The notes beneath the pieces are model-generated. The model was not told where the DNA came from and did no database searches. It was given only the letters and a program-made list of their open reading frames with translations. A DNA stretch of 32,229 bases from a virus (Duplodnaviria > Heunggongvirae > Uroviricota > Caudoviricetes). How positions within the stretch are numbered: the first letter of the stretch is position 1; each line of letters opens with the position of its first letter. The stretch lies in IMG/VR virus record IMGVR_UViG_2529292920_000016; one strand, 5' to 3'. This document shows, piece by piece, positions 22,653 to 32,229 of this stretch. A program made the position numbers and the translations under genes.

Positions 22653-22944
22653 TAAAAAAGCCAGCGCCCACTCTGAAGGACGCTGGCTAAAACGGGTAGA
22701 TGTACTTCACATGATACTTATACTTGGCAGTACATTTTCTGACAGACAGTGACGGATGTTGTCAAGATATTGTGTCATTTATAACCTGAATCAGGGGTTG
22801 GCCGGAATGTTATCTGGCATTTTTAGCAGAGCCTGAATGCCATAATCACGGCTCCCGGCGTTGGCCGTCAGTGGGTGACACTGGCGGCTTTTTTGTTTTT
22901 CTTTACTTTCATTTTCTGTCGGCGGTGACGGAGACATACATCAG

Positions 22945-25431: not shown

Positions 25432-25941
25432 TTATTTTATCAGAAGTTAATTATCACTCTGTTGCTATTCAGTACATCCCTGCAGGGTAAAGTCTTGTTT
25501 CGCCGGATATGAAGATGAAATATTGTTAGAAGACAGTAGCTACCGGTTCCTGTAACCGAACGTTCATTTCTCGTTATTTTTCATGCTGGCCGGGCGCAGG
25601 TGCTTTGCATCTGTTGCCAGCCTTCTCCTGCAGGCTTCAATAACCCATGCCGAAAAATTACCCGATCCCTTACGTTCAAGGGCAATATGGATTTGATTAA
25701 TCATCTGGTTTGGGAAGCTTTATTTTTTGATGACATTGTGTTTTTCCGTGTTCAGTGCTGCTGATTTGTATTGTCTTAAGATGTCTTTACGTTAAGTTGA
25801 CACAGATCAATTAATGCATGACTTGGACAAAATTGATTATTTGTCGTGGTTTTATGGTGTACGTGGGATGTGTGATGGTATTTATATAAATGATAATTAT
25901 TATCATTTATTGGGTCCTTTCCGGCGATCCGGCAGGCTACG

Positions 25942-26122: not shown

Positions 26123-26671
26123 ATGAACGTCAATAAGAAAAAACTGGCCGATATTTTTGGCGTTGATGTCAGGACCATCACCGCCTGGCAGAGTCAGGGG
26201 TTACCACTAGTTTCTGGTGGAGGGAAAGGGACTGAATCAGTTTTTGATACAACTGCTGCCATTCAGTGGTATGCGCAGAGGGAAGCTGATATTGAAAACG
26301 AAAAACTCCGTAAAGAGATCGAGGATTTGAGGGCTGCCAGCGAATCAGACCTTCAGCCCGGCACCATTGATTACGAACGTTACCGACTGACGAAGGCACA
26401 GGCCGATGCACAGGAGCTGAAAAATGCTCGTGAGGAAGGCCTTGTCCTCGAGACGGAGTTATTTACCTACATCTTTCAGCGAGTGGCACAGAATATATCA
26501 GGGATCCTTGTCCGTGTCCCTCAGACACTGCAGCGTAAATACCCTGATATATCACCCGCACATCTTGATGCTGTGAAAACTGAAAGCGCGAAAGCATCCG
26601 ATGTGGCTTCTGAAGCCGGTGAGAATGTGCGCAGGTGGATTGATGATTTCAGACGAACTGAGGGCGGCTAA
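26123..26671 (+). CDS. nu1: Terminase small subunit (Nu1)
   Basis: [28 protein letters not shown]...GGGKG...EIENEKLR...[26 protein letters not shown] closely resembles lambda Nu1; GGGGGAG RBS. Confidence 0.9.
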
Positions 26672-28571
26672 TTCTGCAGGAGCGATAGCAACCGGCCTCC
26701 TTGCGCTAAAAATTCCTGTCCCTCTGACGACAGTTCAGTGGGCAGATCGACATTATTACCTTCCGAAAGAGTCATCTTACACCCCGGGGCGGTGGGAAAC
26801 ACTGCCGTTTCAGGTTGCCATCATGAACAGCATGGGGAATGACCGGATCCGCACTGTTAATCTGATTAAATCTGCCCGTGTTGGTTATACAAAGATGTTG
26901 CTGGGAGTGGAGGCTTATTTTATTGAGCATAAATCACGCAACAGCCTTCTTTTCCAGCCCACGGATTCTGCTGCTGAAGATTTTATGAAATCTCATGTGG
27001 AACCCACGATCAGGGATGTGCCGGTTTTACTCGATCTTGCACCGTGGTTTGGGCGTAAACATCGTGATAATACCCTCACGCTGAAACGCTTTTCATCGGG
27101 CGTCGGTTTCTGGTGCCTGGGCGGCGCTGCCGCCAAAAACTACCGTGAAAAATCCGTGGACGTGGTCTGCTATGACGAACTTTCCTCGTTCGAGCCGGAT
27201 GTCGAAAAAGAGGGCTCGCCAACCCTGCTGGGGGATAAGCGTATTGAGGGGTCGGTGTGGCCAAAATCCATTCGCGGCTCGACGCCTAAAATCAAAGGCA
27301 CCTGCCAGATCGAAAAAGCGGCCAACGAGTCGGCGCATTTCATGCGTTTTTATGTGCCCTGCCCGCACTGTGGGGAGGCGCAGTATCTGAAATTTGGCGA
27401 TGAGTCCACGCCTTTTGGGCTTAAATGGGAGAAGGACAGTCCCGAAAGCGTTTTCTACCTCTGTGAACATCATGGCTGCGTGATCCATCAGTCTGAGCTT
27501 GACCAGAACAACGGGCGGTGGATCTGTGAAAACACGGGCATGTGGACCCGTGACGGTCTGACGTTTTTCAGCGCCCGGGGTGATGAAATTCCGCCGCCGC
27601 GCTCCATCACGTTCCATATCTGGACGGCGTACAGTCCGTTCACCACCTGGGTACAGATTGTCTATGACTGGCTGGATGCACTGAAAGATCCCAACGGCCT
27701 GAAAACCTTTGTGAACACCACGCTGGGCGAGACCTGGGAAGAGGCCGTGGGCGAAAAACTCGATCACCAGGTACTGATGGATAAGGTGGTGCGTTACACG
27801 GCGGCGGTGCCTGCCCGGGTGGTTTATCTGACGGCGGGCATTGACTCGCAGCGAAACCGTTTTGAGATGTATGTCTGGGGATGGGCTCCGGGAGAGGAAG
27901 CTTTTCTGGTGGATAAAATCATCATTATGGGGCGTCCTGATGAGGAAGAGACGCTGTTACGTGTGGATGCGGCGATCAACAAAAAATACCGCCATGCGGA
28001 TGGCACCGAAATGACTATTTCCCGTGTCTGCTGGGACACCGGGGGGATCGATGGTGAAATTGTTTATCAGAGATCAAAAAAACACGGTGTTTTCCGGGTG
28101 CTGCCGGTAAAAGGCGCATCTGTCTATGGCAAGCCGGTGATCACCATGCCAAAAACCCGCAATCAGCGGGGCGTGTATCTGTGTGAAGTGGGAACGGACA
28201 CCGCAAAAGAAATTCTCTATGCCCGTATGAAAGCCGATCCCTCGCCTGCGGATGAAGCCACGTCGTATGCCATCCGTTTTCCTGATGATCCGGAGATTTT
28301 TTCGCAGACAGAGGCGCAGCAACTGGTGGCGGAAGAGCTGGTGGAGAAGTGGGAAAAAGGAAAGATGCGTCTGCTGTGGGATAACAAAAAGCGGCGTAAC
28401 GAAGCGCTGGACTGCCTGGTGTATGCCTACGCGGCATTACGTGTGTCCGTGCAACGCTGGCAGCTTGATCTGGCTGTACTGGCAAAATCCCGGGAAGAAG
28501 AGACGACCCGGCCAACCCTGAAAGAACTGGCAGCGAAGCTGTCCGGAGGAGTGAATGGTTACAGTCGCTGA
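26643..28571 (+). CDS. A: Terminase large subunit (gpA)
   Basis: ATG at 26643 (AGGTGG RBS) overlapping Nu1 end; high similarity to lambda A throughout ([75 protein letters not shown]). Confidence 0.9.
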
Positions 28572-28782
28572 ACTGCAGGCGCTGCGTCAGGCGCGCCTTG
28601 ATTTATTAACCGGTAAACGGGTGGTGTCTGTCCAGAAAGATGGTCGCAGAATTGAATATACGGCGGCTTCTCTGGATGAGCTTAACCGGGCGATCAATGA
28701 TGCGGAGTCGGTACTGGGGACAACCCGGCGTCGCCGTCGTCCGCTGGGAGTGAGGTTTGAAACGAACGCCTGTCCTGATTGA
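28555..28782 (+). CDS. W: Head-tail joining / DNA stabilisation protein (gpW)
   Basis: LLTGKRVVSVQKDGRRIEYTAASLDELNRAIND matches lambda W; GGAGG RBS; overlaps end of A. Confidence 0.8.
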   Translation: MVTVAELQALRQARLDLLTGKRVVSVQKDGRRIEYTAASLDELNRAINDAESVLGTTRRRRRPLGVRFETNACPD

Positions 28783-28802
28783 TGTGAACGGCGTTCCGCT
28801 TC

Positions 28803-30350
28803 GTGAGAGTCTCAGCTACGAACGGGGGCGGTGCAGGATTTGGCGGGCAAATGGCGGAGTGGTTGCCACCGGCGCAGAGTGCCGATGCGGCCCTGCTGCC
28901 CGCGTTGCGTCTGGGGAATGCCCGGGCAGATGATCTGGTGCGCAATAACGGAATAGCGGCCAATGCGGTGGCCCTGCATAAGGATCACATTGTCGGGCAT
29001 ATGTTTCTTATCAGCTACCGTCCGAACTGGCGCTGGCTGGGGATGCGGGAGACCGCAGCAAAAAGCTTTGTCGATGAGGTGGAGGCGGCCTGGTCGGAAT
29101 ACGCCGAAGGGATGTCTGGCGAGATCGACGTGGAAGGAAAACGCACGTTCACGGAATTTATCCGTGAAGGTGTGGGCGTTCATGCGTTTAACGGCGAAAT
29201 CTTTGTGCAGCCGGTCTGGGATACGGAGAGCACGCAACTGTTTCGTACGCGTTTTAAAGCCGTGAGTCCGAAACGGGTGGACACGCCAGGACACGGTATG
29301 GGGAACCGTTTTCTGCGGGCCGGTGTGGAGGTCGATCGATATGGTCGTGCCGTTGCGTACCATATCTGTGAGGATGATTTTCCGTTCTCCGGGAGTGGAC
29401 GATGGGAACGGATCCCGCGTGAACTTCCCACCGGGCGTCCGGCCATGCTGCATATTTTCGAGCCGGTGGAGGACGGGCAGACCCGTGGGGCCAATCAGTT
29501 TTACAGCGTAATGGAACGGCTGAAGATGCTCGATTCCCTGCAGGCAACACAGCTTCAGTCGGCCATAGTGAAGGCGATGTATGCAGCGACGATTGAAAGT
29601 GACCTTGATACCGAAAAGGCCTTTGAATATATCGCCGGTGCGCCGCAGGGGCAGAAGGATAATCCGCTTATTAATATTCTGGAGAAGTTCTCCAGCTGGT
29701 ATGACACGAATAGCGTGACGCTGGGTGGTGTCAAAATTCCGCACCTTTTCCCCGGTGATGATCTGAAACTTCAGACCGCGCAGGATTCAGACAATGGATT
29801 TTCGGCGCTTGAACAGGCGCTGCTGCGGTATATCGCCGCCGGTCTTGGCGTTTCCTACGAACAGTTGTCCCGTGATTACTCGAAGGTCAGTTATTCAAGT
29901 GCCAGGGCCTCTGCCAATGAGTCGTGGCGCTATTTTATGGGGCGGCGAAAATTTATTGCGGCCCGGCTGGCCACGCAGATGTTTTCCTGCTGGCTGGAAG
30001 AGGCACTTCTTCGGGGGATTATCCGTCCGCCACGGGCGCGTTTTGATTTTTATCAGGCGCGATCAGCCTGGTCACGGGCAGAGTGGATTGGTGCCGGAAG
30101 AATGGCCATTGACGGGCTCAAGGAGGTTCAGGAATCGGTGATGCGCATTGAGGCCGGACTGAGCACGTATGAGAAAGAGCTGGCGCTGATGGGCGAGGAT
30201 TATCAGGACATTTTCCGCCAGCAGGTCAGGGAATCTGCTGAGCGACAAAAAGCCGGACTCTCACGTCCGGTGTGGATAGCGCAGGCGTATGAGCAGCAGA
30301 TAGCGGAGAGTCGCAGGCCGGAAGAGGAGACAACACCCCGTGAGACGTAA
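28803..30350 (+). CDS. B: Portal protein (gpB); N-terminus apparently displaced into another frame by a frameshift
   Basis: High similarity to lambda B from GGGAGFGGQ onward. The first ~24 codons homologous to the lambda B N-terminus (..KRTPVLIDVNGVPLRESLSYERG) lie in a different frame from 28757; the frames meet at a G5 run (28824-28828). Confidence 0.85.
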   Translation: MRVSATNGGGAGFGGQMAEWLPPAQSADAALLPALRLGNARADDLVRNNGIAANAVALHKDHIVGHMFLISYRPNWRWLGMRETAAKSFVDEVEAAWSEYAEGMSGEIDVEGKRTFTEFIREGVGVHAFNGEIFVQPVWDTESTQLFRTRFKAVSPKRVDTPGHGMGNRFLRAGVEVDRYGRAVAYHICEDDFPFSGSGRWERIPRELPTGRPAMLHIFEPVEDGQTRGANQFYSVMERLKMLDSLQATQLQSAIVKAMYAATIESDLDTEKAFEYIAGAPQGQKDNPLINILEKFSSWYDTNSVTLGGVKIPHLFPGDDLKLQTAQDSDNGFSALEQALLRYIAAGLGVSYEQLSRDYSKVSYSSARASANESWRYFMGRRKFIAARLATQMFSCWLEEALLRGIIRPPRARFDFYQARSAWSRAEWIGAGRMAIDGLKEVQESVMRIEAGLSTYEKELALMGEDYQDIFRQQVRESAERQKAGLSRPVWIAQAYEQQIAESRRPEEETTPRET

Positions 30351-31845
30351 TCTTTCACACATTATTGCCGCAGCATTCAATGAACCGCTGCTTCTGGAGC
30401 CCGCCTATGCGCGGGTTTTCTTTTGCGCGCTCGGGCGCGAGATGGGGGCATCAAGTCTTTCGGTACCACAACAGCAGGTACAGTTTGATGCTCCCGGAAT
30501 GCTGGCTGAAACGGACGAGTACATGGCCGGAGGTAAACGACCGGCCCGTGTTTACCGGGTGGTGAACGGTATTGCGGTACTGCCGGTGACCGGCACGCTG
30601 GTGCACCGGCTGGGGGGGATGCGGCCATTTTCCGGAATGACTGGCTATGACGGCATTGTCGCCTGTCTTCAGCAGGCAATGGCAGATAGCCAGGTGCGGG
30701 GCATACTGCTGGACATTGACAGTCCGGGCGGGCAGGCCGCCGGCGCGTTTGACTGCGCTGACATGATTTACCGCCTCCGTCAGCAGAAGCCGGTCTGGGC
30801 ACTGTGCAATGACACGGCCTGTTCTGCAGCCATGCTGCTGGCGTCGGCCTGCTCCCGACGGCTGGTTACCCAGACATCCCGTATCGGCTCCATTGACGTG
30901 ATGATGAGCCATGTCAGCTATGCCGGTCATCTGGCGCAGGCCGGTGTGGATATCACGCTGATTTACTCAGGGGCGCACAAGGTGGATGGCAATCAGTTTG
31001 AAGCCTTACCGGCAGAGGTTCGCCAGGACATGCAGCAGCGCATTGATGCGGCGCGCCGGATGTTTGCCGAAAAAGTGGCCATGTTTACCGGTCTGTCTGT
31101 TGATGCCGTCACGGGAACAGAGGCCGCCGTTTTTGAAGGTCAGTCCGGCATTGATGCCGGGCTGGCGGATGAATTAGTCAATGCGTCGGATGCCATCAGT
31201 GTGATGGCCACGGCGCTGAACAGTAATGTCAGAGGAGGCACTATGCCGCAATTAACTGCAACGGAAGCCGCCGCGCAGGAGAACCAGCGAGTGATGGGGA
31301 TCCTGACATGCCAGGAAGCGAAAGGACGTGAACAGCTTGCCACGATGCTGGCAGGACAACAGGGCATGAGCGTTGAACAGGCCCGGGCGATTCTGGCCGC
31401 GGCGGCACCGCAGCAGCCGGTGGCATCCACGCAGAGTGAAGCCGATCGCATTATGGCGTGTGAAGAAGCGAACGGTCGTGAACAACTGGCGGCAACGCTG
31501 GCGGCGATGCCGGAGATGACGGTGGAAAAAGCCCGCCCGATCCTGGCTGCTTCACCGCAGGCGGATGCCGGACCCTCACTCCGTGATCAGATCATGGCAC
31601 TGGATGAGGCAAAAGGGGCTGAGGCGCAGGCTGAACAGCTGGCTGCCTGCCCGGGAATGACTGTGGAGAGCGCCCGGGCTGTGCTGGCTGCGGGATCAGG
31701 TAAGGCAGAACCGGTCTCTGCATCCACAACCGCCCTGTTTGAACGCATCATGGCGAACCATTCACCGGCAGCGGTACAGGGTGGCGTGCCACAGACGTCA
31801 GCAGACGGTGATGCGGACGTGAAAATGCTCATGGCCATGCCATGA
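30340..31845 (+). CDS. C: Head maturation protease / scaffold (gpC with Nu3-like C-terminal region), S49/ClpP-like
   Basis: Similarity to lambda C (protease core GILLDIDSPGGQAAGAFDCADMIYRL...). C-terminal third carries three ~45-aa tandem repeats. Confidence 0.85.
   Translation: MRRNLSHIIAAAFNEPLLLEPAYARVFFCALGREMGASSLSVPQQQVQFDAPGMLAETDEYMAGGKRPARVYRVVNGIAVLPVTGTLVHRLGGMRPFSGMTGYDGIVACLQQAMADSQVRGILLDIDSPGGQAAGAFDCADMIYRLRQQKPVWALCNDTACSAAMLLASACSRRLVTQTSRIGSIDVMMSHVSYAGHLAQAGVDITLIYSGAHKVDGNQFEALPAEVRQDMQQRIDAARRMFAEKVAMFTGLSVDAVTGTEAAVFEGQSGIDAGLADELVNASDAISVMATALNSNVRGGTMPQLTATEAAAQENQRVMGILTCQEAKGREQLATMLAGQQGMSVEQARAILAAAAPQQPVASTQSEADRIMACEEANGREQLAATLAAMPEMTVEKARPILAASPQADAGPSLRDQIMALDEAKGAEAQAEQLAACPGMTVESARAVLAAGSGKAEPVSASTTALFERIMANHSPAAVQGGVPQTSADGDADVKMLMAMP
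31300..31760 (+). repeat. Three in-frame tandem repeats (~135 nt each) within the C/Nu3-like gene
   Basis: Protein repeats: RVMGILTCQEAKGREQLATMLAGQQGMSVEQARAILAAA / RIMACEEANGREQLAATLAAMPEMTVEKARPILAAS / QIMALDEAKGAEAQAEQLAACPGMTVESARAVLAAG. Confidence 0.55.
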
Positions 31846-31881
31846 AGCCAGTGCTGACCATCAACAGGAGGTTTTTACAAT

Positions 31882-32229
31882 ATGGTGACGAAAACTATCA
31901 CTGAACAGCGTGCGGAAGTACGTATTTTTGCCGGTAATGATCCGGCTCATACCGCCACAGGCAGCAGCGGGATTTCCTCGGCAACACCGGCACTGACGCC
32001 ACTGATGCTGGATGAGGCCACCGGGAAACTGGTGGTCTGGGACGGACAAAAAGCCGGTAGTGCGGTTGGCATACTGGTACTGCCGCTTGAAGGCACAGAG
32101 ACGGCGCTGACCTATTACAAGTCGGGGACCTTTGCGACGGAGGCAATCCGCTGGCCTGAAAGTGTGGATGAACACAAAAAGGCCAACGCCTTTGCCGGCA
32201 GTGCCCTGAGTCACGCGGCGCTGCCGTAA
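31882..32229 (+). CDS. D: Head decoration protein (gpD)
   Basis: NDPAHTATG...PALTPLMLDEATGKLVVWDG...AVGIL...LTYYKSGTF...WPE...AFAG matches lambda D; ORF and stop complete at the window end. Confidence 0.85.
   Translation: MVTKTITEQRAEVRIFAGNDPAHTATGSSGISSATPALTPLMLDEATGKLVVWDGQKAGSAVGILVLPLEGTETALTYYKSGTFATEAIRWPESVDEHKKANAFAGSALSHAALP

Follow-up and report, generated by a model that had tools for sequence, protein, structure and literature searches.

A portal gene divided between two reading frames in a lambdoid Escherichia coli prophage is probably a consensus error of an early draft assembly

The head genes of Escherichia coli phage 21 and of phage lambda are close described counterparts of the locus reported here. 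In both phages the portal protein is encoded in a single reading frame whose start codon overlaps the stop codon of the preceding head-tail joining gene W (ATGA), and in phage 21, which is viable, W and the portal gene are intact in the same arrangement. A further counterpart is the potC-side defective lambdoid prophage of enteropathogenic E. coli (EPEC) E2348/69 (NC_011601, 1268129-1300999). The DNA analysed was the IMG/VR virus record IMGVR_UViG_2529292920_000016 (Caudoviricetes), a stretch of 32,229 nucleotides (nt) that is called the window throughout and that carries a prophage head module of the same type. The window showed 98% DNA identity over 1 kb to the phage 21 region (gene 4 region of M81255; CPT_21_04 of OL657228), and both portals belong to PF05136, while the identity to the E2348/69 prophage was 99.5-99.9% over about 30.5 kb. 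The N-terminus of the window portal can also be aligned with lambda gpB (NP_040583), including the motif GGGxGFGGQ. Unlike the genes of phage 21 and lambda, the portal gene of the window as deposited has no ATG, and its codons 1-21 stand in a different frame from the rest. The analysis indicated that this split is probably a sequencing or assembly artefact of a 2012 draft, in an ordinary prophage gene.

Three reading frames converge at the junction: W in frame 1, a short stub in frame 2 and the main portal frame in frame 0. The stub open reading frame (ORF) at 28757-28933 on the forward strand starts with TTG, encodes 58 amino acids (aa) and translates as MKRTPVLIDVNGVPLRESLSYERG... / MKRTPVLIDVNGVPLRESLSYERGRCRIW... 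before losing homology. Its residues 1-21 are identical to the N-terminus of the phage 21 and sister portals and alignable with lambda gpB, and thus represent the authentic portal N-terminus; the rest is out of frame. The stub ORF had no Pfam match, and its exact sequence was not found in the protein collection. The main portal frame (28803-30350, forward strand) matched PF05136 Phage_portal_2 with 334.9 bits; stops at 28758, 28776 and 28785 block it, and the earliest start codon within it is the GTG at 28803. The initial annotation had already described a frame from 28757 that encodes the portal N-terminus and soon ends, and a main frame that opens only at 28803, and both descriptions held. 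On the source contig the depositors annotated a 75-aa W, on record as EHU29518.1 / WP_000259001.1, and a 499-aa portal starting from the ATG at 28851.

Direct alignment of the window with its relatives revealed two offsetting single-base differences, a missing A at 28757/28758 and an extra G at 28820, 63 nt downstream. At the first site (28757..28758, forward strand) the relatives read GGTTATGAAACG and the window GGTT-TGAAACG, so that GGTTATGAAA has become GGTT-TGAAA, TTG stands in place of the portal ATG, and the W stop and the portal start no longer overlap as ATGA. The same missing A shifts gpW past its TGA (28758-28760), and the protein is therefore 75 aa long instead of 68, with seven additional residues. 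At the second site the relatives read CTAC-AACGGGGGCGG and the window CTACGAACGGGGGCGG, with the extra G standing between TAC and AAC on the forward strand and parting portal codons 1-21 from the main frame. The junction accordingly has the wild-type forms GGTTATGAAA and TACAACGGGGG, and the variant forms of the window are GGTTTGAAA and TACGAACGGGGG.

The initial annotation had placed the shift in the run of five G residues (G5) at 28824-28828 on the forward strand, and this location was not borne out. The G5 run is the wild-type state in all relatives aligned, being present in E2348/69, OkiPb01684, O111:H2 12A, AMSHJX01, phage 21 and three sister copies, and the extra base is G28820. Translation did confirm that removal of one G from the run joins the two frames; the fused N-terminus expected from it (...SLSYERGGAGFGGQ...) differs, however, from the wild-type junction, which is ...SLSYNGGGAGFGGQ... 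and agrees with lambda ...GYHGGGSGFGGQ... The choice that had been offered, between a real frameshift and a homopolymer error, is best decided in favour of a sequencing or assembly error, but not of a run-length error at G5. Since G5 is the wild-type state, the finding of G4 on resequencing is unsuitable, as it was worded, for settling the matter. The second lesion, with the lost portal start codon and the lost gpW stop, had not been noticed.

When the A was restored and G28820 removed in silico, a 530-aa portal without internal stop was obtained, 1-3 aa from the sister copies, and the same two-base repair gave a 68-aa W identical to the W of the sisters. Residues 1-67 of the W in the window are identical to those of the sisters, and the protein ends in ...VRFETNACPD as opposed to ...VRL in the relatives. 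No other defect was found in W or the portal gene once both indels were undone. A single ORF of about 530 aa, whose ATG start and the stop of W share the sequence ATGA, was present in every relative and absent from the window as deposited. The relatives annotate W with 207 nt and the portal gene with 1593 nt in one frame, as does phage 21. The orthologues thus carry a 530-aa portal, and the idea that a short N-terminus might be a conserved feature among them was contradicted.

The arrangement was searched for in other genomes. With window positions 28400-29400 as the query, 1,866 complete E. coli records were matched and the best 40 aligned; these best 40 showed no net length difference to the window over that interval in spite of the split, because the two indels offset each other. 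A 131-nt query spanning both sites matched 1,861 complete E. coli records at 2,970 places. The top identity was 98.5% (129/131, the shortfall being exactly the two gaps), and no match of at least 99% to this junction query occurred among the 1,861 records. As an exact pattern, the deletion variant was found in 0 viral contigs and 0 metagenome contigs, and the insertion variant in 0 viral contigs and 0 species-representative genomes, while the wild-type pattern gave at least 120 matches in viral contigs. Overall, the gene was one continuous frame with the same G5 in the 1,861 E. coli records, in 19 phage records and in at least 120 viral contigs. The exact sequence of the 75-aa W was found on one contig only in the protein collection. 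An entry of 'n=8' for this protein in UniRef100 could be read as eight genomes; this reading was dropped, as such clusters absorb fragments and the exact sequence is on a single contig.

The 3' part of contig AIEZ01000011.1 (138,502 nt; assembly GCA_000249135.2) contains the window without any difference, and the window ends 80 nt short of the contig end. The AIEZ drafts belong to the E. coli DECA collection, published in 2012 (PMC3558956). The exonuclease variant of the window is encoded on 11 contigs, including the 5.1-Mb UFZD01000005.1, three sibling DECA drafts and the independent draft GCA_002464965.1. The exact large-terminase protein (642 aa) served as the handle for finding sister loci, and all nine other places with an identical terminase (9/9) had a W of 68 aa and a portal of 530 aa, one of them being the same potC-side prophage in UFZD01000005.1 (L021). 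Further contigs with an identical protease came, among others, from four Logan assemblies of public runs. Five other assemblies with the identical protease covered the junction; W was 68 aa in 5/5, and the portal was 530 aa in all except L032, where it is broken at another point of the gene. Among contigs encoding the identical terminase or protease, the arrangement of 75 aa plus 499 aa was confined to the source contig. The same lesion was not seen in independent assemblies of the lineage, the sisters with identical terminase or protease being intact at the junction. The Nu1 protein of the window, which has a private substitution at 26586, was also unique to the source contig.

Comparison of the source contig with GCA_002464965.1 showed 0 substitutions in 21,951 nt and 2 indels, both of them long T runs, in the orientation of that locus, that were called too short. 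One is a private change from A6 to A5 at window positions 12933-12938, in the 3'-terminal part of a PtuB-like gene. The second is a change from T7 to T6 that breaks lolC into pieces of 265 and 134 aa (L016, 21051-22249), in the chromosomal flank outside the window. The intact sister protein scored 838.9 bits against NF008076 (lolC); of the two pieces, one aligns with positions 1-264 of this profile and the other with positions 266-399. Four sister assemblies have an undivided lolC of 399 aa, and the sibling DECA draft AFJB01000008.1 (L015) shows the split found in the source contig. The genes lolCDE are essential in E. coli; the lolC frameshift therefore cannot be real in a viable isolate and is almost certainly a homopolymer miscall. 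A private change from A7 to A6 at window position 22654, just 3' of a SASA-family esterase gene, is probably another homopolymer undercall; A7 was found in all sisters covering the site. The difference at the W/portal junction is likewise private to one assembly, and this assembly contains other indels that are impossible, as in lolC.

The junction also lies in a difficult part of the assembly: the contig ends about 3.5 kb away, and the module is a repeat with three copies. Such places generally have the poorest consensus quality. In the sister genome the three copies of the head module are L021, L022 (at the location of L030) and L031. Ahead of the module the window corresponds to the potC-side copy; from there as far as 29150 it does not differ from copies A and B. 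At 29228-29777 the portal body is a mosaic of the three copies, agreeing with copy C over 29228-29576, with A/B at 29684 and 29695, and with B/C from 29713, the last agreement continuing to the end. The whole paralog mosaic is private to the window, and the junction from C to A/B is common to L032 (ADUL01000075.1). Resident prophages may have recombined to give this mosaic, or the consensus may be chimeric. Little weight was placed on the mosaic as evidence for a collapsed, chimeric repeat, since the junction in L032 makes real recombination plausible.

An artefact of the draft consensus, in a genome whose W and portal genes are most probably intact and overlap at ATGA as usual, would account for the split as follows. 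One base, the A of the portal ATG, would have been dropped, and one base, G28820, would have been added 63 nt downstream; jointly, the two errors would put portal codons 1-21 out of the main frame and leave the normal W stop unread. On the forward strand, the extra G falls in flow space on a null G flow, one cycle before the G5 flow; on the reverse strand it falls on the null C flow that comes one cycle later than C5. Carry-forward or incomplete extension in pyrosequencing reads would be expected to place a 'ghost' base there, and the extra G may thus be an out-of-phase signal from the G5 run nearby. In 2012 the same sequencing centre used 454 Titanium and Celera for other E. coli drafts (PMC3491183). 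Against the closest sister there were 0 substitutions over 22 kb, and two real indels 63 nt apart are therefore very unlikely; we infer that these two indels are errors and not real private mutations.

Several observations weigh against an artefact, and some of them speak directly for a real lesion, in which one or both indels would be private mutations of the DECA isolate, the portal gene a recent pseudogene and W a protein with a 7-aa C-terminal extension. Neither indel is a plain change of homopolymer length, the type of error demonstrated elsewhere in the assembly; the missing A is a singleton with no specific error signature, and pyrosequencing is indicated for this assembly only indirectly, through the other drafts of the centre. 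The prophage was already degraded, with the transposase of the IS481 family at 13243-14331 and with frameshifts in its DUF1627 and recombinase genes, all common to E2348/69, which makes relaxed selection and real decay plausible. Decay of the element is in fact documented, the same prophage in E2348/69 being without the genes from protease to tail, and the two additional intact module copies in the sister genome would relax selection on any one copy. The contig of the closest independent sister, GCA_002464965.1, begins at the window equivalent of 29151, with the junction outside it. The paralog mosaic, which was first taken for an artefact, is compatible with real variation in view of the junction in L032, and a -1/+1 pair at 25906/26010 turned out to be shared with L021 and is not an artefact. 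A real lesion is nevertheless judged unlikely. It was seen in no other assembly, including the sisters with identical terminase, exonuclease and protease; as no substitutions over 22 kb separate the source contig from the closest sister, two independent indels 63 nt apart would have had hardly any time to arise; the essential lolC is frameshifted in the same assembly; and the gene bears no other lesion. If it were real, this prophage copy would make no normal proheads unless another resident copy supplied the portal, and it would add one more decaying prophage gene to an EPEC genome with other intact module copies, which is ordinary biology.

Should the lesions be real, a leaderless portal might still be made from GTG 28803 or ATG 28851 and be functional, the lost part corresponding roughly to the leader that is removed from lambda gpB. 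In the lambda RefSeq record (NP_040583) residues 1-22 of B are marked as a leader peptide that is removed, the out-of-frame codons 1-21 roughly cover this leader in the alignment, the Pfam portal domain begins only at residue 29 of the intact protein, and GGCGGG lies 4-9 nt 5' of ATG 28851 as a possible weak Shine-Dalgarno sequence. This proposal depends on the lesions being real, however, and was considered very improbable: GTG 28803 has no Shine-Dalgarno sequence, a start at ATG 28851 drops the conserved GGGxGFGGQ motif that mature lambda gpB keeps, and no relative uses such a start. It also requires that the 7-residue C-terminal tail of gpW be tolerated. If true, it would offer a natural test of whether the leader of about 20 residues shed by lambda-type portals during maturation is dispensable. 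Recoding, by a programmed +1 (or -2) ribosomal frameshift or by transcriptional slippage at the G-rich tract, would join the TTG leader to the portal frame, and such a tract (CGG GGG CGG) does lie within the overlap of the two frames. A programmed event would be conserved, yet the two-frame arrangement was found in no relative examined, and recoding leaves the damaged start codon unexplained; programmed frameshifting is for these reasons effectively excluded. A run of five G is, in addition, short for transcriptional slippage.

With a consensus error as the probable explanation, the deposited record and the RefSeq entries taken from it, a 75-aa gpW (WP_000259001.1) and a 499-aa portal, most likely describe non-existent proteins, and prophage-intactness calls for this isolate would wrongly score the head module as defective.

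The head module, of lambda/phage-21 type, spans window positions 26123-32229 according to gene calls and Pfam matches, with the gene order Nu1, terminase A, W, portal B, protease C and D. The Nu1-like small terminase gene lies at 26123-26671. The large terminase gene (26643-28571, forward strand, 642 aa) is intact and directly 5' of W. The gpW-like head-tail joining gene as deposited (28555-28782, forward strand, 75 aa) matched PF02831 gpW with 79.4 bits, the match covering positions 3-66 of 66. The Shine-Dalgarno sequence of the portal gene, GGAG at 28747-28750 on the forward strand, is unaltered in the window, and its equivalent in the phage 21 record OL657228 is annotated as a ribosome_binding_site. 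Against a PF05136 cut-off of 32.9, scores of 334.9 bits for the 499-aa product of the window and of 337.9 bits for the intact protein of the sister were obtained; these scores, together with the position in a lambda-type head module, identify the gene as a portal gene on the source contig and at the sister loci. An intact S49 protease/scaffold gene (30340-31845, forward strand), equivalent to lambda C/Nu3, follows 3' of the portal gene, and the decoration-protein gene runs from 31882 onward.

Other observations were made along the prophage. A Septu-type defence pair is carried as cargo at 10994-12983 on the forward strand; PtuA (457 aa) matched PDLC00283 with 549 bits, and PtuB (HNH) matched PDLC00325 with 272-278 bits. 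The change from A6 to A5 at 12933-12938 alters the 3' end of ptuB, the profile match reaching 191/213 in the window versus 205/213 in the sister. The IS481-family transposase gene (13243-14331, reverse strand) lies between the Septu pair and hokD and is absent from the otherwise collinear AMSHJX01 prophage (L007). Relative to E2348/69, a 2-nt deletion (AC) at 17256 is present in a DUF1133 gene, where the ORF of the window (16794-17294) encodes 166 aa versus the 180 aa annotated in E2348/69. At 17529 there is a T7/T8 difference, and here the window has the same run length as O111:H2 12A. The pair at 25906 and 26010 consists of a missing T and an extra C relative to E2348/69, 104 nt apart, in the presumed cos region 5' of Nu1. 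Both states are common to the sister L021; in L020, L023 and L029 the one difference from the window is at 25906. Consensus slippage as the origin of this pair was rejected, since L021 has the same states, which makes it a real polymorphism relative to E2348/69.

Compared with known indel miscalls of early drafts, the assembly shows the same kind of private undercalls at A6, A7 and T7 runs, and the extra G at the junction falls on the null flow next to that of a 5-base run of the same nucleotide; the likeness ends at the missing A, which is a singleton, and pyrosequencing is indicated here only indirectly. Compared with the potC-side prophage of E2348/69, the window has the same potC-adjacent integrase end, the same IS481-family insertion and the same pseudogenes. 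The E2348/69 copy, unlike the window, has an additional ISEc13 and an IS200C upstream of the lysis genes, and a deletion has cut its S49 protease gene short and fused it to an NlpC/P60 tail gene (L004, 33790-34238), with W and the portal gene intact. The E2348/69 copy is clearly defective, and because the IS481-family insertion and several pseudogenes are shared with it, the prophage of the window was probably already defective. The gpW of lambda and the proximal head completion protein of phage 21 share PF02831 with the W of the window, and the difference in length is due only to the missing A. The phage 21 portal has 530 aa, as does the window portal after repair, and the two differ at 7 residues; the gene itself is nothing new and is a member of the lambda-family portals (PF05136).

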